Counted from the stretch's first letter, positions 39,141 to 58,800 are shown. The stretch is DNA of 64,000 nucleotides from a virus (IMGVR_UViG_3300025102_000012:28809-92808); one strand, 5' to 3'. The notes: generated from the letters alone by a model not told the origin. Numbers and translations: made by a program.

Positions 39141-40628
39141 TTATTCCTCCACTAATACTGCTACATCTGTTGAATAGAATAACTGTGCTATTGACATTGC
39201 CGCTAAGAAACTGTTCTTAGTAACTTTAACTGGGTCAAATACTCCGAATAGAGAAAGGTCACAAACTACTCCGGTAAGAGCATTAAAGCCTGTAGGGTAT
39301 TCTGTAAAGGGAATAAATTCAGTATTGCTATTTTCAAATAAAGTCTTATATGGAGCCGACATTGCTGTTTTAAGCCACATAGGAGCCTCTATGGACTTTG
39401 CACACTCCATTAGGGCTAGACCTCCACCAGTTACAATACCTTCCGATAAGGCCGCTCTAGTAGCGTTTAGAGCATCATCTAATCTTTCTTTCTTTTCTAG
39501 CATTTCCATAGAAGAAGAAGCACCAACTCTAATAGTTGCTACTCCGCCTTTTAATCTAGCAATTCTTGATTTAATCCTAGCAGACTCAAAGCCTTCCATT
39601 GTTTTCAATAAGCCTTTCAAAGATTCTATTCTTTCGGAAGTATCTCCTTTAGCACCAATAACTATTGTTCTTTCTTTGTGGACTTCAATCATTTCACAGT
39701 TACCAAAATCAGTTTCCTTGAAAGAAGTAGGTCTATCTTTACTTTCTTCAGTGAAGATAGTTCCACCAACCATAGCCTGTATATCTGCTAACTCATCTAG
39801 TTGTTGGTCGCCAAAATTAGGGGCTAAGCATACAACACACTCAACAGTTTTATTCATGATATTCATTAGTAAATTGTTAAGGGCTGAACCGTCCATTCCT
39901 TTACAAAAGATAACTAGAGGTCTATTAGTGGTAGCAGCATGTTCTAACATAGGAAGTAGGTCTTTGAAGTTTCTAAACTTTAGATTAGACATAAAGATTA
40001 GAGGATTACTAAACATTGCTTTACCATCATCAGTATTAGCCATTAAATGACTGATATATCCTTCAGTAAGTTGCATGCCTTCTCTAACCATTAGTTCAGT
40101 TATATGAGATTTTGATTCTTCAACAGTAACTATTCCTTCTCTACCAACTTTAGATATGGCTTCTCCAATTAATGTTCCCAAAGCCATATCGTTATTTGCG
40201 GCAATGGTGGCTACATCTATTATTTCTTCATCTTTAATATCTAAGGCCAAATCATCTAATCTAGTTATCATCTCTACTTTGAATGATTCAAGAATATGAT
40301 ACACTTCGTGAGTAGTCATAGGTTCTTCTACACCAAACATATGATTACACAATGCTTGAGCAAGAATACAAGCGGTAGTAGTTCCATCACCAGAATTATC
40401 TTGTGCTTTACTTGCTAAGTTTTGAACCATTTGAATGCCCATTTGAACATAGGGGTCATCATGAGATATGTGTTTTGTTATTGTTACACCATCATTTACT
40501 ATAATAGGAGGATTACCTTGTAGAATAACTGTTTTGGCTTGTGGCCCCAAAGTTGGGCTTACCGTATTAGCAACTAAATTAATTCCTTGTAGTAGTTTTT
40601 CTTTTACTTCTTTTCCGTGTATAATCAT
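39141..40628 (-). CDS. groEL: Group I chaperonin GroEL
   Basis: TLGP, NDGVTI, GDGTTTA, APNFGD, GGVATIRVGA, EKKERLDDALNATRAA, DPVKV. Confidence 0.92.
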   Translation of the reverse strand: MIIHGKEVKEKLLQGINLVANTVSPTLGPQAKTVILQGNPPIIVNDGVTITKHISHDDPYVQMGIQMVQNLASKAQDNSGDGTTTACILAQALCNHMFGVEEPMTTHEVYHILESFKVEMITRLDDLALDIKDEEIIDVATIAANNDMALGTLIGEAISKVGREGIVTVEESKSHITELMVREGMQLTEGYISHLMANTDDGKAMFSNPLIFMSNLKFRNFKDLLPMLEHAATTNRPLVIFCKGMDGSALNNLLMNIMNKTVECVVCLAPNFGDQQLDELADIQAMVGGTIFTEESKDRPTSFKETDFGNCEMIEVHKERTIVIGAKGDTSERIESLKGLLKTMEGFESARIKSRIARLKGGVATIRVGASSSMEMLEKKERLDDALNATRAALSEGIVTGGGLALMECAKSIEAPMWLKTAMSAPYKTLFENSNTEFIPFTEYPTGFNALTGVVCDLSLFGVFDPVKVTKNSFLAAMSIAQLFYSTDVAVLVEE

Positions 40629-40840
40629 TCTTCCACCAACCTTGTTTGTATTCCTCTCCACAAATCATAGGCTTGTTTCTTTTCGGGAATCGTAGTCAAT
40701 AATGTTTTTATCATCATTAGTAAAAACTCTAATTCACCAACCAAAAGCCTATCATCTATTTCTTCTCTAAATAAATCTCCATTTTCAGTAACATCAATCA
40801 TTCTTAACAAAATACTTTCATATAATTCTATATCGTTCAT
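40625..40840 (-). CDS. Hypothetical protein between groES and groEL
   Basis: ORF overlapping both neighbours. Confidence 0.5.
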   Translation of the reverse strand: MNDIELYESILLRMIDVTENGDLFREEIDDRLLVGELEFLLMMIKTLLTTIPEKKQAYDLWRGIQTRLVEE

Positions 40841-43803: not shown

Positions 43804-44658
43804 TTATTCACCTATTTTATTTACATCTTTTCCTCTTAATTGTTTTACATTGGTTAAGCCCAATAGCGTTAGAAGTGATTTAGTTTGTAAATAGATGCAC
43901 TTCTCATCTATTTCTGCCTTTTCAGCAATTAAACTTCTAGTATATTCTCTAACAAATACATTAGAAGTTATCCAACAAATACTTGCATAATACGACCTGC
44001 TTTTCGTATAATTAGCATTTAATAAAATTTGCTCAAATCTAGTCAATACCTCAATACTTTGATTGTAAAAAGATAAGTCATTTGTTATCTTTACTAGAGT
44101 TCTTCTTAGATAAGATTCTGGATTTACAGGAGTATAATTTATTTTATTTTTATAAAAAGAATTAATCTTCCTAAGAATCTTTTTGACTAGTTTAGTTTCT
44201 ACTTGGAATTCTTTACAGACTTCTTTTAAAGAAACAGGATTACCTTGTTCCTTCAAAACATAATACACTATTGCTGTTGCTCTATTTTCATAGGTGTATT
44301 TTTTGAAAGAATCTAGCGAAGCATATAGTTCTAAATACACTTCTTCTATTCTTTCTTTGGCTTCTAAAGAAGAAGAAACATTACTCAGTACCATATTACA
44401 ATATATGAGTGCAGTTCTAATATGAGGAGGGGTTGCCGAATAGTTTCTTCTATTGTATTTAGAAGAACCTTTTCCAGTAATTATTGACCCTAAATTACCT
44501 TTATCCGAACTATGTTTCAGTTCACCTTTACCGTCCAATATGTGTACTGTTTCTTCAAATATTTCTTGAACTAAGACTAGGCCGCATTCGGAACATACTC
44601 TTTCTCCTAATCTTTCATCAAAGTAGTTTTCTTTACTTGAGCATTCTTCACAAATCAT
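43804..44658 (-). CDS. tfb: Transcription initiation factor TFB/TFIIB homolog
   Basis: Zn ribbon CEEC...GERVCSECGLV, LGS, two cyclin-like repeats (ATAIVY, YASICW). Confidence 0.8.
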   Translation of the reverse strand: MICEECSSKENYFDERLGERVCSECGLVLVQEIFEETVHILDGKGELKHSSDKGNLGSIITGKGSSKYNRRNYSATPPHIRTALIYCNMVLSNVSSSLEAKERIEEVYLELYASLDSFKKYTYENRATAIVYYVLKEQGNPVSLKEVCKEFQVETKLVKKILRKINSFYKNKINYTPVNPESYLRRTLVKITNDLSFYNQSIEVLTRFEQILLNANYTKSRSYYASICWITSNVFVREYTRSLIAEKAEIDEKCIYLQTKSLLTLLGLTNVKQLRGKDVNKIGE

Positions 44659-45796
44659 CCATATCAATCCTATTTTCATTTTCATTATCTGTAATATACG
44701 AATTAATCGTATTAACTATTTTTATTGTGTGAGTGTCATTCATTAATGCTAATGCTCTACCGGCAAACTGGTCGCCAACAGGAGTATGATTACCCATATT
44801 ATCTATGCAGATAGAACCTCTCCAACCGCATTTACCGAAATTAAACTCATCAGTTTTGTTGCCGTCATCATCATATACATAATTTTTTTCGGGTTGCCAA
44901 ATATAAGTAGATACTGCTTGATTAGCACTTTTACCTTTATATTCTAACTTCCAATCGAATTCCCTTCCTCGGACATATAGCGTTTGTAGTTTATCTTCTT
45001 TATAATTGGCTCGTAGTTTGCTAGGGTATTGTGCTAACATTTCTTGTACTAATTCATATGCTTTCTTTTCAACAATATCTGCTTTTCTATTTTGTTTTAG
45101 AAAGGCAACTAAAACTTTCAAATCAGATTCTGATGGAAATTTACCCATTAACCTATAATAGAACTGTTTTGGAGAAGTATATTTCCAAGAACAATTCTTG
45201 GTGTTTTTGGTATCAATATAAAAACTAGAATACTTTATTAGTTCTTTAATAGAAATAGAACCCCAAATACCATCTCCTATCTCTATGGCGCATTCATCGG
45301 GGGATATTTGTTTTACATTCAAACGAACTTCGTGTTTTACAAAGTCACTATAAAACCAATACGGTAGTCTATTTTCAATGACATATTTGACTACTTCGGG
45401 TAGTTTAGTAGTTTGATAAAGATATGGCATTAGTTTAAGTGGGTCTTTTTCAAAACAACTTTTGAATAAAACTCTTGCTAAGGCATGACATAATTCATCC
45501 ATTAGCATAATTTTGCCATTAATATAGTACCTAGACGATTTTTGGATAACGAATGGTGTTTCTCCTATCATTAGGGTAGTCGTTCCTTCCGGAATGCCAT
45601 GAAAAAACTTTTGTGTGCCTCTTTTATTTTTAAAGGAACTCAAAAAGTGTTGATAAATAGACTGGTGAATAGGGTCTTTAGCGCTAACTGGATGAATTGT
45701 TGCAATTGAACCATGTATGTTCCTACCAACAATATTTAGTTCAGTTTCCCAATATTCATTTGCTCCGTCATGTGGTTTTCTAATTCTTATTTTCAT
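44648..45796 (-). CDS. Hypothetical protein; C-terminal domain with GSICID motif
   Basis: 382 aa; ends GWRGSICIDNM...PVGDQFAGRALALMND. Confidence 0.5.
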   Translation of the reverse strand: MKIRIRKPHDGANEYWETELNIVGRNIHGSIATIHPVSAKDPIHQSIYQHFLSSFKNKRGTQKFFHGIPEGTTTLMIGETPFVIQKSSRYYINGKIMLMDELCHALARVLFKSCFEKDPLKLMPYLYQTTKLPEVVKYVIENRLPYWFYSDFVKHEVRLNVKQISPDECAIEIGDGIWGSISIKELIKYSSFYIDTKNTKNCSWKYTSPKQFYYRLMGKFPSESDLKVLVAFLKQNRKADIVEKKAYELVQEMLAQYPSKLRANYKEDKLQTLYVRGREFDWKLEYKGKSANQAVSTYIWQPEKNYVYDDDGNKTDEFNFGKCGWRGSICIDNMGNHTPVGDQFAGRALALMNDTHTIKIVNTINSYITDNENENRIDMDDL

Positions 45797-45962: not shown

Positions 45963-46319
45963 TTAGTATTCCCCAAATAAATAATCAATGTTTTTCTTTC
46001 TTTCGTTGCATATTTTACATTCTTTTTTACCATCTAATAAAACACAATTTTTTTCATGGTATTTTGATAGATGGTAATAGTAGTTTATTTTATTGTCAAG
46101 ATAAATACTAAATCCTTTATCTACGGCAAGCGGAACCTGCCAAAATATATCGTATAGTGTTGTCTTTAACATGAATTTTTTGTCTCTATCTGAGTAGTTA
46201 GAAGACATAATGGTGATGTTTCTTATTATATTTTTATCTTCTGCTTTTAATTCTCGCATAAATAAAATTGTTGCATCCAATACACCGCTATAAGGCAGTT
46301 TATTGAACACGATGAACAC
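45963..46319 (-). CDS. Hypothetical protein with C-terminal His/Cys cluster
   Basis: H...C...CKIC; start codon uncertain. Confidence 0.4.
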   Translation of the reverse strand: MFIVFNKLPYSGVLDATILFMRELKAEDKNIIRNITIMSSNYSDRDKKFMLKTTLYDIFWQVPLAVDKGFSIYLDNKINYYYHLSKYHEKNCVLLDGKKECKICNERKKNIDYLFGEY

Positions 46320-46327
46320 CGAAGGGT

Positions 46328-46366
46328 TGGAAAGCCACTATCTAGGGTTAGGATAGTGACTCTCCA
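46328..46366 (-). terminator. 15-bp stem-loop downstream of the ubiquitin-like gene
   Basis: Minus strand TGGAGAGTCACTATC-loop-GATAGTGGCTTTCCA; G-U pairs favour the minus strand. Confidence 0.6.
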
Positions 46367-51897: not shown

Positions 51898-52341
51898 TCA
51901 CAACGAATCAAAGTTTCCATCCCAAGAACCCTCTTTGAATAGTTTTGCCAAATGTGTTCTTGTTCTCTTTACTATTGCCTTAGCATAGTCTTCGGCATTC
52001 TCATATTGCTTGCCACCTCTAGCAACTAAAACCTTAGCCATTAGAAAATTGCTATTGTAATATGCTAGTGATGATTCTTCTACTAAGGAACAAGCCTTAT
52101 CTATAGAAATTCTAACTGTAGTTGGCACAGAACTCTTTTTGCCCTTACGGAAAGGTGTTCCATCCCTGCCTCTTAGGAGAGCCTTCAATGCACCCTTAGC
52201 CGCATCTCTCTCATCGGGACTATTATCTCCAATTTGAAGATTCAACCTTAGCACCTGCTTTAGTCCATCTTCTAATTTCGTGTCTGCTTCTAAATATTCT
52301 TCAACCTCTACTTTGAGGCTATTCCATTCTATGTTATCCAT
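51898..52341 (-). CDS. Paralog family member 1 (RKG..SS / KE..WDG family)
   Basis: Shares W..., G.P.RKG..S, GG and KE..WDG with 53663 and 56724. Confidence 0.6.
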   Translation of the reverse strand: MDNIEWNSLKVEVEEYLEADTKLEDGLKQVLRLNLQIGDNSPDERDAAKGALKALLRGRDGTPFRKGKKSSVPTTVRISIDKACSLVEESSLAYYNSNFLMAKVLVARGGKQYENAEDYAKAIVKRTRTHLAKLFKEGSWDGNFDSL

Positions 52342-52454
52342 GTTAATCTCCAACAAATTATTACTTTATTTGGCGTATATAAGCGACCCTAATGTTTTAC
52401 TTAAAGCATTAAATCACTATTACTCTAAATCAATTTTATGCGGTCTTTTACATT

Positions 52455-52860
52455 CATCTCATGGATGATACATCCCATCATTCGTCTCAAAGTGAGACAA
52501 ATGCCTTATGTTACACAAGTCACTCTTACAGAAGGACATCTCGTAAATTCAATTCGTCTCATCTCATCTCATCCATCTCACCATATATCTCTCTCATAGG
52601 GACTCATAACTACCCTCTAAGAAAAGGACTTATGGGGTAGTAGTATTATGATGATGATGATGATATGAGATATGAGATATATGAGATAGATATAGTGATA
52701 ATATATATTATGTTACATATCTCTACCTCTCAGCCCCAACTATGTCGCATCTCATTCAATTTTTTCGGTGAGACGAATCAAACATTCTATATTATATTAT
52801 TATAGATATACAAGATATAATATTCTTATTATAATACATATAAGACCAATTGAAAGAGAG
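52455..52860. repeat. Non-coding region with direct and inverted ATCTCA/TGAGAT and ATTCGTCTCA repeats (candidate origin)
   Basis: ATTCGTCTCA at 52480 and 52552, inverse at 52769; tandem ATCTC(A) 52561-52580 opposite TGAGATA x3 at ~52666-52688; AT-rich flank; strand switch. Confidence 0.6.
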
Positions 52861-53140
52861 CATTAATTGAATATGCTATACATATAACGATAAGTTTTGA
52901 TAAAAAATAGGGGTTGTTTAAGTATTGCTTAACCAAAACCCTTTGTTAAGTGATGTTATTACCATATGGTTGCACTTTGGTTTAACCCGGTGCGATTTTT
53001 TGAATAGGTTCGCTTCCTATTGGGGGTTTGGAGGGGTGGGACTTCTCAGGAGTTATCATCGCTTAACCCTAAGCGGGGTAATTTTTCATTCCCGTATGTA
53101 CATTCTATTTTGAACTCGTTTCGATACTGCCCCATGAATA

Positions 53141-53386
53141 TTAACCAAATATATCATCAAATATTGTTCTCTTTCTCCCTAGTGGTTTTATGCTACTAGG
53201 TCTATCATGACAAGTAACGCATACATCTGTAAAATCAATTAAGGGATTTGCTGTGTTTCTAAATTTTTCGGTATATACTCGAATATGAGGTTGCCGACCT
53301 GCATAACCGCCTTTGAATTTATCGCATTCATAGCAACTCTTTGTTGGCATTTCTTTTTCCCAATGAATTTCATTTTCTCTAGTCAT
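53141..53386 (-). CDS. Cassette gene, zinc-binding protein
   Basis: CYEC...CVTC; preceded by a 40-aa ORF at 53383..53505. Confidence 0.5.
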   Translation of the reverse strand: MTRENEIHWEKEMPTKSCYECDKFKGGYAGRQPHIRVYTEKFRNTANPLIDFTDVCVTCHDRPSSIKPLGRKRTIFDDIFG

Positions 53387-53662
53387 TCTTCATACCTCTT
53401 AATCAAAATAATGTTATAATTTGGATTTATCACATTTAGTCCATTATACAAGGCGTTGCGATAATATAATTTTCCTCTATAATTTAATATGTCATATTTA
53501 TGCATGGTAAACCCATAACTCTACTATATTTAAGGTAATGACCACAAAGTTACCATTACCATATGGTAGTGCTTTGGGCTACCTTAATTAATATCAAATA
53601 GAGTTACTTGGGTGCTTCAATGGGGAGCAAACACATCAAATCAACCATAAGGAGTTGAAACC

Positions 53663-54187
53663 ATGAAAGAAACAAATTGGAATATAAATGCAAACAAAGT
53701 AAAGACTTGGGCGGAAACCCAAAACGAAAAAGACCCTCAAGTAATGGCAATTATGCTATCACTTGGGCTTGGTGAAGCGGCAGGTACTGACGAAATGAGA
53801 AGTACATATTGGACGGCTATTCGTTCAATAGGTTCTACTATGGAAGGTTTTCCAGCCGCTCGCAAAGGACAGTTATCATCACTTACAGACAAACAACAGA
53901 TTGTTTTGGATGCTGTGGAAACAACAGTCGTGAATGCTTTTGCGGCAATCCCTACTGAATACCACGATGTCATACTTGCTGTCATTGTACCAAACGGTAG
54001 GACTGGTGGCGTATTTGAAGATTACAACGCATTCACTAGCGACATGAAAAGAAAGGCTCACAACTATATGTTGAAGTCAATCAAAGAAAACCGTTGGGAC
54101 GGAACAAAGGCAAACAAAGCCGGAGTACCAACAATAACCCCATCGGTTCCAAAATCAAAGGTCGAAGAGGTGACTGAAGAGGTTTGA
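53663..54187 (+). CDS. Paralog family member 2 (cassette gene)
   Basis: AAGGAG SD; MRSTYWTAIRSIGST identical to 56724. Confidence 0.7.
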   Translation: MKETNWNINANKVKTWAETQNEKDPQVMAIMLSLGLGEAAGTDEMRSTYWTAIRSIGSTMEGFPAARKGQLSSLTDKQQIVLDAVETTVVNAFAAIPTEYHDVILAVIVPNGRTGGVFEDYNAFTSDMKRKAHNYMLKSIKENRWDGTKANKAGVPTITPSVPKSKVEEVTEEV

Positions 54188-54314
54188 TGTTGTTGTTTCC
54201 CCATTGTTGCGCCTTTGCGCTTCATTGGGGTTCGCCAAAGACAAACCATATGGTTGTATGCTTTGCATACGACCCTAATATATCAATTAAGAATATTTTG
54301 TTTGGTGATAAAAT

Positions 54315-55025
54315 ATGGATATGACATACGAGCGCACAATGAAAATTAAATATACAGAAAACGAATTAACAGATACAGAAATGAGAAAACTAGCCCACGA
54401 CTTACAACAAGAAGGGCTTGATATGGTAGATTGGGGAAATGAGGAAGTATTACAATACGGATTCAAACCAATGACCACAACTAAAACTCGCCATGTAATA
54501 AAAAACAGTAGGGGCAAAGTAATTTACTCAAACACATACCGACACAATACCGCAGAAGTTTACAATCAAATAAAAGAGTTCTACAAAGTAACAAGAGAGG
54601 AAGTGGAACAAGTTACCACAATCGAAGGTTGGGTAGAGCCGAACGGAACTAGGTTGAGCCTTGTTGATGAAAGTGACAAATATAGAATAGTAACGGATTA
54701 TGTTGGTAATTATTATTATGAGGAAGAAGAAGTACAAATGCTAGTCAAAATAAATAATAGCAGTTATCAAGGTTTTACATTAGAAATAATTACTACTTGG
54801 AAGACTGATAAAATTCAAAGAGCAGACCTTATCAAACAACGATTAGTAGAACTTCCACTTGAAGAAGTTGGTAAAATACAAACTATCTTAGAATCTTGTT
54901 TGAGTGAGTATAGAGTAGTACCCGAACATCCGGAGATTGATTGTCACTTTGATGCTAAGACTGAAACAACTAGTGAATGTTCACCCGATATAATCAAGTT
55001 AGTTAGAGAGGCGAGAAATCAATGA
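54315..55025 (+). CDS. Cassette gene, hypothetical protein
   Basis: 236 aa, GGTGA SD, after palindrome 3. Confidence 0.65.
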   Translation: MDMTYERTMKIKYTENELTDTEMRKLAHDLQQEGLDMVDWGNEEVLQYGFKPMTTTKTRHVIKNSRGKVIYSNTYRHNTAEVYNQIKEFYKVTREEVEQVTTIEGWVEPNGTRLSLVDESDKYRIVTDYVGNYYYEEEEVQMLVKINNSSYQGFTLEIITTWKTDKIQRADLIKQRLVELPLEEVGKIQTILESCLSEYRVVPEHPEIDCHFDAKTETTSECSPDIIKLVREARNQ

Positions 55026-55168
55026 AGACATACAAGATAATAAGATTTAGACAAGGTAGAGAAACAATAACAATACAAACGGGATTGACACTTGAAGAAG
55101 CACAAGCCCATTGTCAAGATGATGAAACAAGAGGAGATGGTTGGTTTGACGGTTACACTGAAGAATAA
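55022..55168 (+). CDS. Small phage-type protein (48 aa)
   Basis: MKTYKIIRF...GLTLEEAQAHC...WFDGYTEE; ATGA overlap with upstream gene. Confidence 0.55.
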   Translation: MKTYKIIRFRQGRETITIQTGLTLEEAQAHCQDDETRGDGWFDGYTEE

Positions 55169-55398
55169 ACTCATTAACATTGTATCACTTGAATGTGCTA
55201 GAACTGACCACAGACATGATTTAAAGCACTGTAAGATTTGTATGAAGGAGAGGAGGAAAAATGGCTCATAAACCCCAAACCAGCATCAATTAAGTTTGAT
55301 GCCCTGTAAGTCCTATATGGCAAGGTTATGCAAAGCATAACCATATGGTAATGTAACTTTGAGGACTACCCCATATACTATCTAGAAATTGGTTTGTC

Positions 55399-55587
55399 AT
55401 GCAGAAATGTAGAGGAATTGCAGGGAAAGGTTGTGGAAAAACAGCATCTTACAGATTGCCATATGCGACAGTTTGTTTTGAATGTTTTGAGATTAATAGA
55501 AAAGATTGGGAATCTAGAGATGAATTAGAAAAAGCCTCAATTCGTCGAGAATGGCGAGTTCAAGGAATTCCTAATCCTTTCGATTAG
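55399..55587 (+). CDS. Cassette gene, small Cys-rich protein
   Basis: C...C...CFEC; ATG about 25 nt after a TATA-like element. Confidence 0.55.
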   Translation: MQKCRGIAGKGCGKTASYRLPYATVCFECFEINRKDWESRDELEKASIRREWRVQGIPNPFD

Positions 55588-55686
55588 GTTTTCCGGCCTC
55601 TTTTGAGGCCACTAACCACAAAGTTATGACCATATGGTTGGGAGGCTTTGTTCTCAACCCTAAATAGGGTTGTTAGTTCTTTGGGC

Positions 55687-55902
55687 ATGTCAAACGATAC
55701 CACACTAGTAGGATATGTAAGAATGACCAACGCAGGGGGACAAATCAAAGTTTCAATCAATGTTGATGCTTTCAAAGATTGTCAAACCTATACAACAAGT
55801 GACGGACAAGTATATGTCCCACTGATTATATCAGCAAATGCTCTAAAAGCAGTACAAGATGGAGAAAGAGTAGTAACAACAATCTTTCAGCATGTAGATT
55901 AA
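55687..55902 (+). CDS. Cassette gene, hypothetical protein (likely leaderless)
   Basis: ATG in TTTGGGCATG about 26 nt after TAAATA. Confidence 0.6.
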   Translation: MSNDTTLVGYVRMTNAGGQIKVSINVDAFKDCQTYTTSDGQVYVPLIISANALKAVQDGERVVTTIFQHVD

Positions 55903-55933
55903 TTCCAATGGTTATTAGTGGCCATAACACTAT

Positions 55934-56090
55934 TGAGAAACGAAGGCGAAAGTCAAAAGACCAATATATCAGTCGGAAGGATATGCACGACAGGTTGCAC
56001 AGTGAAGAATACTAGTTGTACTTCATTCACTCCCCTAGAGTCAAGTATCAGCGCTTTAGCGGCTTTTGAATTAGTAGCCCAAGTTTCTCA
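55934..56090 (-). ncRNA. Candidate structured non-coding RNA (~155 nt)
   Basis: Nested stems TGAGAAAC/GTTTCTCA, GGGC/GCCT, TCAAAAG/CTTTTGA, GGGGA/TCCTT enclose two hairpins; G-U pairs only on the minus strand. Confidence 0.55.
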
Positions 56091-56189
56091 TGAGTATTGG
56101 GGTAATGCAAAGCATTACCATATGGTTGCTTCTTTGGTAATAAACCCCGCAGGGAAAATGGCCGAAACCATCTTTTTTGTCGGGATATC

Positions 56190-56579
56190 TCAATAATCTG
56201 CTCTTGGATATCCGTATTGGCCGTAAGTGCAATTATTACACATACAATCGGTATTACAAATATCAAACCCATATCTGCTCCGCCTATATTTTTGAAGGCA
56301 TATGTAGCAATCGGGATTACTTTCATATTCATCACATTCACAATATAACAAGACTTCTAAATTGCTATATGCGTCTTCTATCGGCTTTTTTGCTTCTTTT
56401 GGGAGATTTTTATAGAATGGTTCTTCCATTAAGAGTTTGATAGCGTCTAACTCTTTTAGAGTTGTATCTTTTCTAGCCTCTATCTTCTCTCGTATCTCTT
56501 CATCCGTCAATCCTTCATCTACCCATTGTTCGTATTCGTCTTCGCTGACTCTAATATCATCACCAAAGAATATTGGCAA
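56190..56579 (-). CDS. Cassette gene, acidic N-terminus and Cys-rich C-terminus
   Basis: TTG start after GGTGA; CEC...CYIC...C...CMCNNC. Confidence 0.55.
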   Translation of the reverse strand: MPIFFGDDIRVSEDEYEQWVDEGLTDEEIREKIEARKDTTLKELDAIKLLMEEPFYKNLPKEAKKPIEDAYSNLEVLLYCECDEYESNPDCYICLQKYRRSRYGFDICNTDCMCNNCTYGQYGYPRADY

Positions 56580-56723
56580 TATTCACCTATACTTAGGGTA
56601 GACAAAGCCTACCATATGGTTGTAATCGCTTTGCGAGCGTAGTGCATTACAACCCTAATACTTACAGGAAGTACAGGGTTGCTTCGGAGGGATTGAAGCA
56701 TTAACTTTTAAGGAGTTGATAAT

Positions 56724-57233
56724 ATGAAGGAAGAAAATTGGATAACAAACATAAACAAAGTAAATTTGTGGCTTGAAGAAGAAGATAGAGGAGCAAGCGG
56801 CCAAGCAATTGGTTTGTCTATTACTCTAGGAAATGACTGTGGTAGTGACGATATGCGTTCTACTTATTGGACGGCTATCCGTTCTATAGGTAGTACATAT
56901 ACCGACTTCCCTTTAGCAAGGAAAGGCCAAGCATCTACATTACCAGTAGAAATACAAGTGGCGGTAGATGGTGTGACTTCTGCGGTACAATCTGCTTTTG
57001 CGGATATTACTAATGGTGAGTTAATTACTACTGTAATCTATGCAGGGCTTGGTCGAAGAGGCGGAAAATACTCTTCAATGAATGAATTTGCTGACTATAT
57101 GGCTAAACAAGCAGGTCAAAACCTGTTGAAAGGATATAAAGAAGGTCGTTGGGACGGAACCATGAATGGCGATATCCCGACAATGGCTGCTCCTCCTGTA
57201 AAGGAGAAGAAGGAGGCCAATAAAGAAGATTGA
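56724..57233 (+). CDS. Paralog family member 3 (cassette gene)
   Basis: AAGGAG SD; clear paralog of 53663..54187. Confidence 0.7.
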   Translation: MKEENWITNINKVNLWLEEEDRGASGQAIGLSITLGNDCGSDDMRSTYWTAIRSIGSTYTDFPLARKGQASTLPVEIQVAVDGVTSAVQSAFADITNGELITTVIYAGLGRRGGKYSSMNEFADYMAKQAGQNLLKGYKEGRWDGTMNGDIPTMAAPPVKEKKEANKED

Positions 57234-57339
57234 TGCGGCATTCCCTCCGTTGCACCTCTTTAGGGGGCAATGGCAAAGCCATTACCATATGGTAGTAACT
57301 TTGTGGTACCACACTAATAGGGTTAGATTTTATTTGGGC

Positions 57340-57690
57340 ATGTTTACGAAGAGTATTGGTGATGAAGAAGACGGAGTAGTAGTTAATGTAGGATTATGTG
57401 CTGGAAGGCATGATATTGAGGGAATCACTGATTATATTTTTTCAGAACCTATTGAAAATCCTAATGACTTTAAAACTCTAAGACAAATCGCAAATGAAAG
57501 ATTAGAGGAAATGTGGAATGATGGAAATTGTATCAACATTTATGTTACTGGATTAAGCCAAGCATTAACTATCGTTTTATCAGAAGTTTTTGGTTTATAC
57601 GAATTAACAGAATATGATATTCTGGTTCAGGTCTATCATTGGGATAGAGAAACAGAAACCTACAAGGGTCATACCATCGTAGGTAGTTAA
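57340..57690 (+). CDS. Cassette gene, alpha/beta protein (likely leaderless)
   Basis: ATG in TTTGGGCATG; GLCAGRH..I...YIF...IYVTGLS.AL...YHWDRE. Confidence 0.6.
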   Translation: MFTKSIGDEEDGVVVNVGLCAGRHDIEGITDYIFSEPIENPNDFKTLRQIANERLEEMWNDGNCINIYVTGLSQALTIVLSEVFGLYELTEYDILVQVYHWDRETETYKGHTIVGS

Positions 57691-57784
57691 AACCCTTCGG
57701 GGCAACCTCAAAGATATTACCATATGGTGTGGTCTTTGACCGTTGGTAATACACCCTATATAGGAGGTATTTGAGTCAATAGTC

Positions 57785-58267
57785 ATGGATAATGATATTA
57801 CCATTAATAAGGAGGCAAAAACTAACAGTTCTATAACTCTCCATGTATGTAGAACTGGGAAGAAAGAGCAATACTACACCCTATACGAGGAAGGGATAGT
57901 AGCAAGACCATATAGGTGCAATTACTTTTGTAACTATGTACAAAACTTAGCACACTCAAAAGTTGATGCTATGGAAAAGGCACAAAAGAGGCAACAAGAA
58001 TTAGTTGATAGTGGCTTTTGGTTCACTGTTGAAGTAGAATATCATGATTCTCCACGAATCATATATGCTAGAATGGAGGCCTTTGGTGCTGAATTCAAGA
58101 CTTCTAAATCCGGTACTACAATGTGGGCTAACGCTACACCCGAATTTTGGGACAATTGGAAAGCAAATAAACAATTAATCAAGAATGCTGGATTTTGGGT
58201 CAAGAGAACTAATACTGGTCAATGGCTTGTTTTCGTCAAGAGGGATGCAGACTTCGATTATAGTTGA
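57785..58267 (+). CDS. Cassette gene, hypothetical protein
   Basis: ATG about 25 nt after TATATA, following palindrome 9. Confidence 0.6.
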   Translation: MDNDITINKEAKTNSSITLHVCRTGKKEQYYTLYEEGIVARPYRCNYFCNYVQNLAHSKVDAMEKAQKRQQELVDSGFWFTVEVEYHDSPRIIYARMEAFGAEFKTSKSGTTMWANATPEFWDNWKANKQLIKNAGFWVKRTNTGQWLVFVKRDADFDYS

Positions 58268-58800
58268 GGCCTAATAAAAAACACATGATGTTTTCCCCAA
58301 TTGGGGTTTTTACGGGCAAAGCCCAACCATATGGCTTTGTATTCTAAAATTTTTATTTTTGATTAGATTAAAACAAACAGGCTTTTAATGTAGCGTTTTG
58401 CCTATTTTCAAAGAACTAATATTGCTTTAATTAATACCGATGAAGTTATATCTTGCATAACATTACGCTTTCTTGATACGGATGCCTACTAATGAAGAGA
58501 ACTACAAATACTCTTTTAATTGTATTAGTTTTTTAATATAACTTAATTAGTACGCATATGTAACAACGGTAAATGGAGGTAAAGCGTACTTTTAAATGAA
58601 TTACTGGTTAAATTCTAATTAACTAATTCAGAATTATATAGGTTAAATAAAACAATTAAAAACTATATTATTATTATAAATCAATACATTATAATTAAAT
58701 GATTATCTTTTTATCCTGTTTATACATACGAATATAAAAAAATAAAAACGCAAGTGCCAAATAAATTCCACCACATTTTTTGAGAAAAAGAGATGATAAC

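Follow-up and report, generated by a model that had tools for sequence, protein, structure and literature searches.

What is the function of the repeated palindromes that separate the small genes at a strand switch in an archaeal virus genome? The palindromes lie in a stretch of 64,000 nt (hereafter the window) of a viral genome that consists of a single 92.8-kb contig, is complete and has a 139-nt overlap between its ends. The source is a complete magrovirus-like tailed virus with uncultivated marine archaea as hosts. It encodes typical genes of archaeal tailed viruses (TFIIB Zn ribbon, PolB, ATP ligase, tail tube), and the nearest relatives of its PolB belong to haloarchaeal tailed viruses. 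In addition, it encodes a GroEL-type chaperonin, which agrees with the description of magrovirus group B1 (PMC5434244). The explanation we favour, with moderate confidence, is a composite module: factor-dependent, palindrome-linked leaderless promoters that also act as cassette junctions. A palindrome and an ACC box in front of each small gene at the strand switch would constitute a reusable promoter module present in more than 100 related viral contigs.

The palindrome array at the strand switch

The pattern CCATATGG occurs ten times in the window (0.71 copies expected), always within 52962-58334, and CAAAG-N-CATATG-N-CTTTG is matched by eight palindrome copies where none is expected in the window. 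Each palindrome is built of three parts, CAAAG - N4-10 - ACCATATGGT - N5-10 - CTTTG, and there is one per intergenic gap over 5.4 kb (Table 1). Symmetry in the spacers amounts to 0.24-0.39 compared with 0.30-0.40 in shuffles, and their complementarity is not above chance. With spacers that lack both symmetry and complementarity, the palindrome is no hairpin.

The cluster is located at the cumulative GC-skew minimum, which is the divergence point of two gene blocks, and is flanked by AT-rich repeat regions (52400-52900 and 58340-58800). The long minus-strand block has one evident promoter, the ACC-type element at 53536(-). On the other side, 460 nt of AT-rich non-coding DNA 3' of palindrome copy 9 are followed by a long plus-strand operon. 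The array region is likely to be the transcription control centre of the virus. Searches of the cassette ORFs other than the conserved cluster gene against Pfam and PHROG yielded no matches. The product of the conserved cluster gene is a helical protein for which the fold search gave no informative match. Among these genes, none could be assigned to a DNA-binding protein.

Table 1. Palindromes, putative promoter elements and the TFB gene in the window. Leaders and leaderless starts are predictions; distances (+) are counted from the A of ACC.
Feature	Position	Strand	Remarks
Viral TFB homologue	43804..44685	-	start probably at 44658; both cyclin folds preceded by TFIIB Zn ribbon; might read the element
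Degenerate palindrome copy 0	52941..52979	.	centre ACCATATGGT; CTTTG in both arms, on the left replacing CAAAG; ACC element on neither side
ACCTTAAAT promoter element	53528..53536	-	ATG 53505(-) at +31; leaderless; C at -1
Palindrome copy 1	53545..53576	.	bidirectional, promoter on each side
ACCTTAATT promoter element	53581..53589	+	82-nt leader with GCTTC...GGGG...GAGC hairpin, AAGGAG SD, ATG 53663 (174-aa family)
Palindrome copy 2	54236..54265	.	preceded by GC-rich hairpin 54200-54232
ACCCTAATA promoter element	54272..54280	+	ATG 54315 at +43 after GGTGA SD; short leader
Palindrome copy 3	55331..55361	.	CAAAG/CTTTG pattern match
ACCCCATAT promoter element	55368..55376	+	ATG 55399 at +31; leaderless; 62-aa Cys-rich ORF
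Palindrome copy 4	55619..55650	.	preceded by hairpin GGCCTC-TTTT-GAGGCC, ~55600-55616
ACCCTAAAT promoter element (within AACCCTAAATAGGGTT)	55657..55665	+	ATG 55687 at +30; leaderless
ACCCCAATA promoter-like element	56095..56103	-	no ORF behind; possible non-coding transcript
Palindrome copy 5	56108..56136	.	serves minus strand; on its right CCCTGCGGGG hairpin of gene 56579-56190(-)
ACCCTAAGT element	56591..56599	-	faces ORF 56579-56190(-); sole in-frame start TTG at +20
Palindrome copy 6	56603..56633	.	bidirectional
ACCCTAATA promoter element	56652..56660	+	18 nt from arm; 72-nt leader with GCTTC-GGAGGGATT-GAAGC hairpin, AAGGAG SD, ATG 56724 (174-aa family)
Palindrome copy 7	57274..57303	.	CAAAG/CTTTG pattern match
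ACACTAATA variant element	57311..57319	+	one mismatch; ATG 57340 at +29; leaderless
Palindrome copy 8	57709..57738	.	preceded by CCCTTCGGGG (UUCG-loop) hairpin, 57695-57704
ACCCTATAT promoter element	57753..57761	+	ATG 57785 at +32; leaderless; 160-aa ORF
Short palindrome copy 9	58317..58339	.	right arm abuts centre; preceded by CCCCAATTGGGG and a T-run

Putative promoter elements and predicted leaderless starts

The original prediction had coupled the CTTTG-arm palindromes to an ACC(C/T)TAA(A/T)-like element. This coupling is borne out: the strict motif ACC[CT][CT]A lies at most 25 nt from the arm in 11 of 19 arm-bearing flanks, compared with 0.018 per random 25-nt segment (~5e-15 by binomial arithmetic). 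Two of the 11 matches (54231- and 58307-) are arms of GC hairpins and not promoters. The predicted plus-strand elements at 53581, 54272, 55368, 55657, 56652 and 57753 match the strict motif, that at 57311 has one mismatch, and the minus-strand elements at 53536, 56103 and 56599 are present as well. No start codon is found at the expected distance from two minus-strand elements in the window, 56103 and 56599. The ATGs 53505(-), 55399, 55687, 57340 and 57785, proposed to have no well-placed SD, are indeed devoid of one and lie 31, 31, 30, 29 and 32 nt from the A of ACC, all with C at -1. Likewise, the sequence CTAA(A)TAGGGTT...TTTGGGCATG assigned to both 55687 and 57340 was found at 55661 and 57315. 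The proposal that starts downstream of the elements are leaderless agrees with these five ATGs but not with 54315 (+43, GGTGA SD) or with 53663 and 56724 (82- and 72-nt leaders, AAGGAG).

Archaeal TATA elements are A/T-rich, and their centre lies about 26 nt before the start site. In the ATG-aligned starts, CCC occupies -30 to -28 and TAWA -27 to -23 relative to the ATG, which agrees in position with a TATA element. The 5' half is C-rich, not T-rich, which is unusual for a TBP site. Position +1 is the A of ATG and -1 is C in 47% and T in 41% (88% pyrimidine); beside the palindromes, -3 is a purine and -7 to -4 are A/T-rich. A G-rich SD is absent from the palindrome-linked ATGs, where G reaches 0.06-0.27 at -15 to -4 as opposed to 0.5-0.6 in SD-bearing operon genes. 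Together with the peak of the ACC-to-ATG spacing at 29-34 nt, this is consistent with an archaeal core promoter from which leaderless mRNAs are made, with the TSS placed by geometry only. By its position, CCC/TAWA would occupy the canonical TATA window in its 5' half or else the junction of BRE and TATA. This corrects the earlier view of a C-rich sequence at the BRE position: ACC is at -31 to -29, the 5' edge of the TATA window, and the BRE window (-36 to -34) is A-rich, albeit with a weak signal (A = 0.42-0.49 in 116 ATG-aligned cases).

The module in related viruses

The wider sample comprises at least 118 IMG/VR viral stretches with palindromes, which cluster in one 2-6 kb region per genome. 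Of 484 flanks, 240 contain the ACC element at a distance of 4-10 nt to the arm, and outward flanks are enriched 16-fold in ACCCTA and 13-fold in ACCTTA. At about 480 related sites, the first ATG-ORF begins 29-34 nt after the A of ACC, with a mode of 31. This spacing occurs in 102 of 373 motifs beside palindromes and shows baseline counts only among 1,698 motifs elsewhere. The element is present on both sides in 60 of 254 two-armed sites, as anticipated for bidirectional sites; near about one third of the two-armed palindromes, the strict ACC motif is missing. Among the long-leader starts, 27 of 35 precede the 174-aa family, with a hairpin that begins at +23 to +31. The cassette content is patchy, and one family alone occurs in more than half of 78 clusters.

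Among 185,579 cellular species genomes, 40 single palindrome matches at chance level and only one array were detected. The contig with this array has a length of 14.8 kb and was probably mis-binned. The suggested virus-specific promoter class is supported only in part: within the sampled viral DNA, the element with its spacing is confined to the surroundings of palindromes, and the array appears in one contig of the cellular set, but the box could simply be an ordinary promoter of the host (Poseidoniales).

Since the box-to-ATG arrangement is confined to the vicinity of palindromes, factor-dependent promoters are the most likely interpretation. At the start of the module there would often be a GC-rich 3' stem-loop that closes the gene before it, followed by the three-part palindrome and, 4-10 nt past the arm, an ACC(C/T)(T/C)A(T/A)A box. 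At about -31 to -24, the TATA-box window, this box would direct the archaeal RNA polymerase via TBP and a TFB to an ATG located 29-32 nt downstream, where transcription would begin at the A and yield a leaderless mRNA. An exception would be the conserved gene family, whose transcripts are predicted to begin at a 5' hairpin and to carry a 56-92 nt leader ending in an SD. The palindrome may be bound as double-stranded DNA by a sequence-specific, probably virus-encoded protein just upstream of the pre-initiation complex. Thereby, the promoters could be switched together as one regulon, with activation likelier than repression. The conserved ~30-bp sequence might double as a junction for cassette exchange between related viruses.

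Activators typically bind immediately upstream of the core promoter, where the palindrome is located. Archaeal activator sites like those of Ptr2 from Methanocaldococcus jannaschii and viral operators like those of SSV1 F55 and SIRV1 SvtR are dyads that adjoin BRE/TATA and govern TBP/TFB recruitment. The dyad-symmetric site described here adjoins the core promoter, too. In contrast to those sites, its spacing lacks helical phasing, and one site can serve two divergent promoters. Both the arm spacing and the interval between palindrome centre and ACC (sd 3.7-4.9 nt) vary by roughly half a turn of the helix. This disfavours a contact with the initiation complex that is rigid and face-specific.

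Competing roles and known counterparts

Alternatively, ACC might be a non-canonical BRE read by the virus-encoded TFB, so that the virus would possess private promoters poorly read by host TFB, comparable to those of a phage sigma factor. We consider this possible but doubtful. The gene at 43804-44685 encodes a genuine TFB/TFIIB: its product matches PF08271 (30.5 bits, cut-off 29), and with the family profile, matches were obtained to TFIIB/TFB core chains, among them 1ais_B and 1d3u_B, over 86-274, which includes the region aligning with Pyrococcus TFBc, and to 1pft over 8-40. Its family comprises about 75 clusters, all of them viral. A homologue (E<1e-12) is encoded in 23 of 34 palindrome-bearing genomes and in nearly all of those with at least three palindromes; this co-occurrence may reflect common descent alone, and four genomes with weak or no TFB matches (G007, G008, G019, G022) have ACC elements nonetheless. 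The dinucleotide AC is highly specific in front of C[CT]TA[AT] (148 cases compared with at most 13 for any other dinucleotide), and if TBP sat on TAWAWNNN, ACC would be the 3' half of the BRE. However, the position of ACC is not that of an ordinary, A-rich BRE window. In addition, the TFB gene lies in the minus-strand block behind the ACC-type promoter 53536(-); therefore, host factors would have to read this promoter type first.

That the palindrome is mainly a recombination junction, at which short homology moves promoter-plus-gene cassettes between co-infecting viruses without a dedicated regulator and the promoter merely travels along in one module, is unlikely as a full account. Homology breakpoints between related viruses do peak at palindromes, where one-sided homology was counted in 46 pairs at the centre compared with 3-20 at offsets of 60-180 nt, but the pairs lack phylogenetic independence, and a breakpoint in any intergenic region would count. 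Genomes share half-palindromes in differing combinations (e.g. G018, G020, G002), cassette content is hypervariable, an indel between G004 and G024 starts directly beside a palindrome, and the variable palindrome-promoter spacing suits a non-stereospecific role. Three strictly kept short words with variable spacers are, by contrast, a signature of protein recognition that homologous recombination does not need. A junction role is compatible with the composite module and not exclusive. It is quite improbable that the palindrome is a terminator or insulator ending the transcript of the upstream cassette as RNA or DNA hairpin or protein roadblock, even though it always lies between the stop codon of one gene and the following promoter, and GC-rich stem-loops occur upstream of it more often than in controls (mean MFE over 45 nt -8.4 kcal/mol, -6.4 kcal/mol in shuffled controls; only 46% reach -8 kcal/mol), among them a CCCTTCGGGG-type hairpin at 22 of 107 sites. 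These separate stem-loops already provide any hairpin function; the sole T-run available is TTT, the spacers are no more complementary than by chance, and the 60 sites with promoters on both sides have no upstream gene to end. Least credible of all are replication-origin iterons. The GC-skew minimum at the divergence point would suit them, but the copies are scattered one per gap, each is tied to a promoter element with a fixed distance on to the start codon, and the AT-rich repeats on either side of the array would make a better origin.

In T4-type phages, PeSLs (promoter-early stem-loops) are composite motifs in which a terminator-like stem-loop and a promoter flank small variable ORFs of unknown function in hyperplastic regions, at the junctions that distinguish related viruses from each other (Arbiol et al., 2010, PMC2839356; Comeau et al., 2014, PMC4122927). 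Small variable ORFs and breakpoints at the motif recur here, and a stem-loop would often be part of the module. PeSLs consist of a true hairpin and an early promoter of the bacterial sigma-70 type, whereas the promoter here is of archaeal type and the conserved non-hairpin palindrome is an additional element between stem-loop and promoter. Integron attC sites also recall the array in that small cassettes are separated by imperfect palindromes whose outer and inner words are conserved. In contrast to attC, the arms here are not complementary beyond the conserved words, and the cassettes have their own promoters. Tyrosine and serine recombinases (PF00589, PF00239), as would accompany an integron, are absent from the complete genome.

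A close parallel is provided by the intergenic repeats (class I and class II) in halovirus HF2 and other haloferacalesviruses, which were investigated by reporters and primer extension (Russ, Pfeiffer and Dyall-Smith, 2021, PMC8707807). Their upstream conserved motif (alpha) is not needed for basal activity and has been proposed to bind a viral regulator (PMC8707807). In a blastn search with 52900-58400, none of 50,697 phage records matched, so sequence homology to the HF2 repeats was not found. Furthermore, the upstream element here consists of three palindromic parts separated by variable spacers, ACC is conserved in the box and its 5' half is rich in C, leaderless transcripts starting at the ATG itself are predicted for most genes, promoter activity is predicted from sequence, and the host belongs to a marine Thermoplasmatota lineage instead of being a haloarchaeon. 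Virus-specific, promoter-bearing and of fixed geometry, but without homology, the module is an analogue of the HF2 repeats and not a member. In both archaeal tailed viruses, virus-specific intergenic elements are repeated and the core promoter is placed at a fixed distance from the start site; HF2, too, has bidirectional promoter regions, and its elements are kept in sequence and position across the genus.

Palindromes, ACC boxes and predicted leaderless starts

The palindrome consists of a CAAAG left arm and a CTTTG right arm, each separated by a spacer from the centre CCATATGG. Ten copies of this centre are found in the window, all between 52962 and 58334, compared to 0.7 in shuffled sequences. 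The complete pattern CAAAG-N-CATATG-N-CTTTG is matched by eight copies in the window and by none in the shuffles. A pattern scan detected the palindrome in at least 118 IMG/VR stretches, many of them with three to seven copies, and in the 34 long contigs the copies are always confined to one region of 2-6 kb per contig. The palindrome is virus-specific. A scan of one genome per species from 185,579 bacterial and archaeal species with a stringent pattern yielded 40 single matches, about the number estimated from chance. Several palindromes (four copies) were met in a single cellular-genome record, L146, a 14.8-kb contig from an Altibacter sp. MAG (NZ_NZTP01000027.1). This contig most likely stems from a virus of this family and was mis-binned into the bacterial MAG. 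Used as a literature query, CCATATGG returned NdeI primers only.

The ACC box, ACC(C/T)(T/C)A(T/A)A, is located just outside the palindrome arm; distances to start codons are counted from the A of ACC. All ACC-type elements listed by the original prediction are present, that at 57311 in the one-mismatch form ACACTAATA. The strict motif ACC[CT][CT]A occurs at most 25 nt from the arm in 11 of the 19 arm-bearing flanks of the window, the chance of meeting it in a random 25-nt segment being 0.018. Two of these 11 motifs (54231-, 58307-) are arms of GC-rich hairpins and not promoters. The five ATGs proposed to be leaderless are confirmed in their geometry: they are situated 29-32 nt past the A of ACC, lack an SD and have a C at -1 in all cases. 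By contrast, internal genes of long operons carry strong GGAGGTGA-type SDs. Three details of the original prediction have to be corrected. ATG 54315 is located at +43 with a GGTGA SD in front, ATGs 53663 and 56724 are preceded by leaders of 82 and 72 nt, respectively, with AAGGAG, and the minus-strand elements 56103 and 56599 have no start codon at leaderless distance. No ORF lies behind the ACCCCAATA element at 56103(-), and the cassette 55934-56075(-) may yield a non-coding transcript.

Among the 6-mers of 484 non-redundant outward flanks, ACCCTA (16-fold), CCCTAT (14-fold) and ACCTTA (13-fold) are enriched most strongly, and 240 of these flanks contain ACC[CT][CT]A, for the most part 4-10 nt off the arm. 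The distance from the A of ACC to the first ATG that opens an ORF of at least 40 codons is +29 to +34, with a sharp mode at 31. An ATG falls inside this six-base range for 102 of 373 motif copies beside palindromes, whereas the 1,698 motif copies elsewhere in the same 1.1 Mb reach background only. These distant copies are the decisive control for the spacing. Alignment of 116 cases at the ATG reveals a pyrimidine at -1 in 88%, a purine at -3, an A/T-rich stretch from -7 to -4, TAWA at -27 to -23, CCC at -30 to -28 and an A-rich segment from -36 to -34. This geometry is that of a predicted archaeal core promoter, whose transcript would start at the A of the ATG. No general leaderless TATA signal was discernible away from palindromes in a crude, noisy ORF set. 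One ACC-type box, AACCCTAGATAG at 46319-46350(-), lies 29 nt before the GTG-start ORF 45963-46319 with no palindrome nearby and is a possible exception to the coupling.

The C-rich part had been assigned to the BRE position. Instead, ACC occupies -31 to -29 (ATG = +1), and the BRE window proper is ordinarily A-rich. This places ACC on the 5' border of the canonical TATA window, or at the BRE/TATA junction. TBP may bind CCYTAWAA as a C-rich TATA variant, or it may sit three bases downstream with ACC as the 3' half of an odd BRE. The dinucleotide in front of C[CT]TA[AT] is AC in 148 cases, every other one being found at most 13 times. The word ACC-N-TA also makes up each half of the palindrome centre ACCATATGGT. 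Its presence in both box and centre hints at a common reader, which is only an idea.

Candidate readers of palindrome and box

A hairpin formed by the palindrome was considered and rejected: symmetry and complementarity of the spacers on either side of the centre do not exceed those of shuffled controls. The ATGC-AAA-GCAT mini-hairpins of this window are a local, not a general feature. Since three short words are conserved in sequence across spacers of 4-10 nt, recognition as duplex DNA by a protein is proposed. Measured from the predicted start, the distance upstream is about 55 nt for the centre and about 40-45 nt for the proximal arm, a position typical of archaeal activators. The palindrome-to-box distance (sd 3.7-4.9 nt) shows no helical phasing, which weakens a model of rigid contact. 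Among 254 two-armed sites, the strict box is found on both sides in 60, on one side in 107 and on neither side in 87; box plus spacing therefore depends on the palindrome and not the reverse. The palindrome offers a defined DNA bait for its regulator.

Could the viral TFB read the box? A profile of 20 relatives matches the TFIIB/TFB core domains in the PDB including both cyclin folds, and the gene encodes a genuine TFB. The family comprises about 75 clusters on contigs of viral size, and even the remotest TFB-like match, P0196, is viral. A TFB homologue (E<1e-12) was found in 23 of 34 palindrome-bearing genomes, and nearly all genomes with at least three palindromes have one; this association is a co-occurrence in one viral lineage and not evidence of function. 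ACC-type boxes are still present in genomes with weak or no TFB matches. Furthermore, the only evident promoter of the minus-strand block that holds the TFB gene, 53536(-), is itself ACC-type, so that, if the block is read from it, host factors must first read this type. It seems rather unlikely that magrovirus-like viruses operate a private initiation system, in which the viral TFB, alone or with a palindrome-binding partner, reads the ACC-type box and host TFB cannot use the cassette promoters. If the viral TFB read the box, a virus-encoded archaeal initiation factor would be reprogramming promoters, and private initiation would parallel, on the archaeal side, phage reprogramming of the sigma-factor or MotA type. 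The viruses concerned form one of the most abundant groups in the surface ocean.

The intergenic repeats of halovirus HF2 are the closest documented precedent. They were demonstrated to carry promoters by reporter assays and primer extension, and their upstream conserved motif, which is not needed for basal activity, was proposed to bind viral regulators (PMC8707807). They share no sequence similarity with the palindrome module. The magrovirus papers searched do not mention promoters, palindromes or TFB. Novel features are the palindrome in three parts, the ACC box, the exclusive link between the two and the clustering of breakpoints. The module provides a concrete model of the promoter that predicts exact 5' ends, for which existing marine metatranscriptomes offer a check, and it allows the start codons of many small ORFs in related viruses to be corrected.

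Cassette genes, their leaders and probable exchange at palindromes

Often a stem-loop of the upstream gene comes first in the module, followed by palindrome and ACC box. GC-rich stem-loops are commoner upstream of the distal arm than in controls, and the CCCTTCGGGG type with a UUCG tetraloop is found at 22 of 107 related sites. A T-run follows the stem-loop 58294-58310, as in intrinsic terminators of bacteria. Rfam returned a sub-threshold match of 55590-55635(+) to the eukaryotic histone 3' UTR stem-loop (22.7 bits, gathering score 34). This match is due to a GGCCTC-TTTT-GAGGCC hairpin plus ACCAC, and the resemblance is very probably chance.

Coordinates of genes and RNA-level features in the window
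Feature	Position	Strand	Remarks
174-aa family, paralogue	51898-52356	-	
174-aa family, paralogue	53663-54187	+	
174-aa family, paralogue	56724-57233	+	
Leader hairpins	about 53608-53630; about 56677-56706		also at 25 related loci
GC-rich stem-loops	57695-57704; 55600-55616; 54200-54232; 58294-58310		each between stop codon and next palindrome
GC-rich stem-loop	56143-56152	-	between stop codon and next palindrome
Viral TFB	43804-44685	-	TFIIB-type Zn ribbon over Pfam cut-off
Chaperonin	39141-40661	-	bacterial GroEL type, not thermosome; APNFGD and GGVATIKVGA motifs

Gene content between palindromes is hypervariable and, apart from the 174-aa family, patchy in 78 clusters. The array in the window includes two small Cys-rich ORFs, 53141-53386 and 55399-55587. 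Pairs of sites on different contigs were counted as one-sided homology if identity was at least 90% in one 40-nt flank and no more than 50% in the other. Such pairs number 46 with the breakpoint set at the palindrome centre and drop symmetrically to 17-20, 12, 7 and 3 at offsets of 60, 100, 140 and 180 nt, while pairs conserved on both sides remain at about 70-80 at all offsets; the pairs are not phylogenetically independent. In addition, half-palindromes reappear in different combinations among genomes. An integron was rejected as an explanation: because the genome encodes no tyrosine or serine recombinase, homologous exchange is likelier than integron-like recombination. The breakpoint peak matches the junction role described for promoter-early stem-loops (PeSLs) of T4-type phages, which are the nearest analogue for this role (PMC2839356, PMC4122927). 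The palindromes provide a clear non-bacterial example of promoter-bearing junction elements where viral accessory genes are shuffled.

The 174-aa family is the only gene family found in more than half of the palindrome clusters (59 of 78 loci), often with at least two copies. It has a conserved N-terminal Trp, a WDG motif and an acidic tail. No match was obtained in Pfam, PHROGs or Foldseek PDB. The AlphaFold model is confident and mostly helical (pLDDT 88), and VIA-align found generic three-helix-bundle matches only (Z up to 8, residues 1-68). This family provides 27 of 35 members of a second start class with the ATG at +56 to +92. Its long leaders (56-92 nt) have a hairpin at the start and an SD at the end. 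The hairpin is of the GCTTC-loop(GGGG)-GAAGC type with stem sequences that vary among viruses, and it begins at +23 to +31, where the predicted transcript would start, in the window at about 53610 and 56680. Single-sequence folds of the long leaders gave a mean z of -2.1. RNAalifold on their MAFFT alignment found no consensus structure, because variable loop lengths misalign the 3' arm. Possible roles of the hairpin are those of a translational operator or stability element.

Genome, host and flanking regions

The complete record of the virus (G000) is a single contig of 92,808 bp. Its first 139 bases are repeated at its end, and the genome is therefore essentially complete. The repeat indicates either a circular assembly or a redundancy of the termini, although the record is linear according to IMG/VR. 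The palindrome array is located where a minus-strand gene block of about 34 kb and a long plus-strand block diverge, a point that coincides with the minimum of cumulative GC skew. Pfam matches in the window comprise a TFIIB-type zinc ribbon, a Cpn60-family chaperonin, an ATP-dependent ligase, a family-B polymerase and a phage tail-tube protein. The nearest polymerase relatives belong to haloarchaeal tailed viruses (about 25% identity).

The surface ocean is rich in magroviruses and in their Poseidoniales hosts, but to our knowledge neither is in culture. Marine Group II archaea (Poseidoniales) were assigned as hosts by inference (PMC5434244). Relatives of the chaperonin with at least 60% identity number in the thousands on viral-sized contigs; they are named GroEL by JGI, and the consensus of their alignment, as read here, contains group-I chaperonin motifs. 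A search of cellular genomes with the chaperonin found no related loci. Since it is GroEL-type, the chaperonin provides no route to Poseidoniales. Its GroEL type would fit the account of magrovirus group B1 by Philosof et al. (PMC5434244).

Two AT-rich, non-coding regions flank the array. In 52400-52900, short repeats of the CATCTCAT and ATGAGAT types form opposed runs beside a degenerate palindrome copy, and this region is a better candidate for an origin of replication than the palindrome array. The other, 58340-58800, comprises the 460 nt that separate the last palindrome from the opening gene of the long plus-strand block; it might serve as a promoter region or an origin, or might be an RNA gene.
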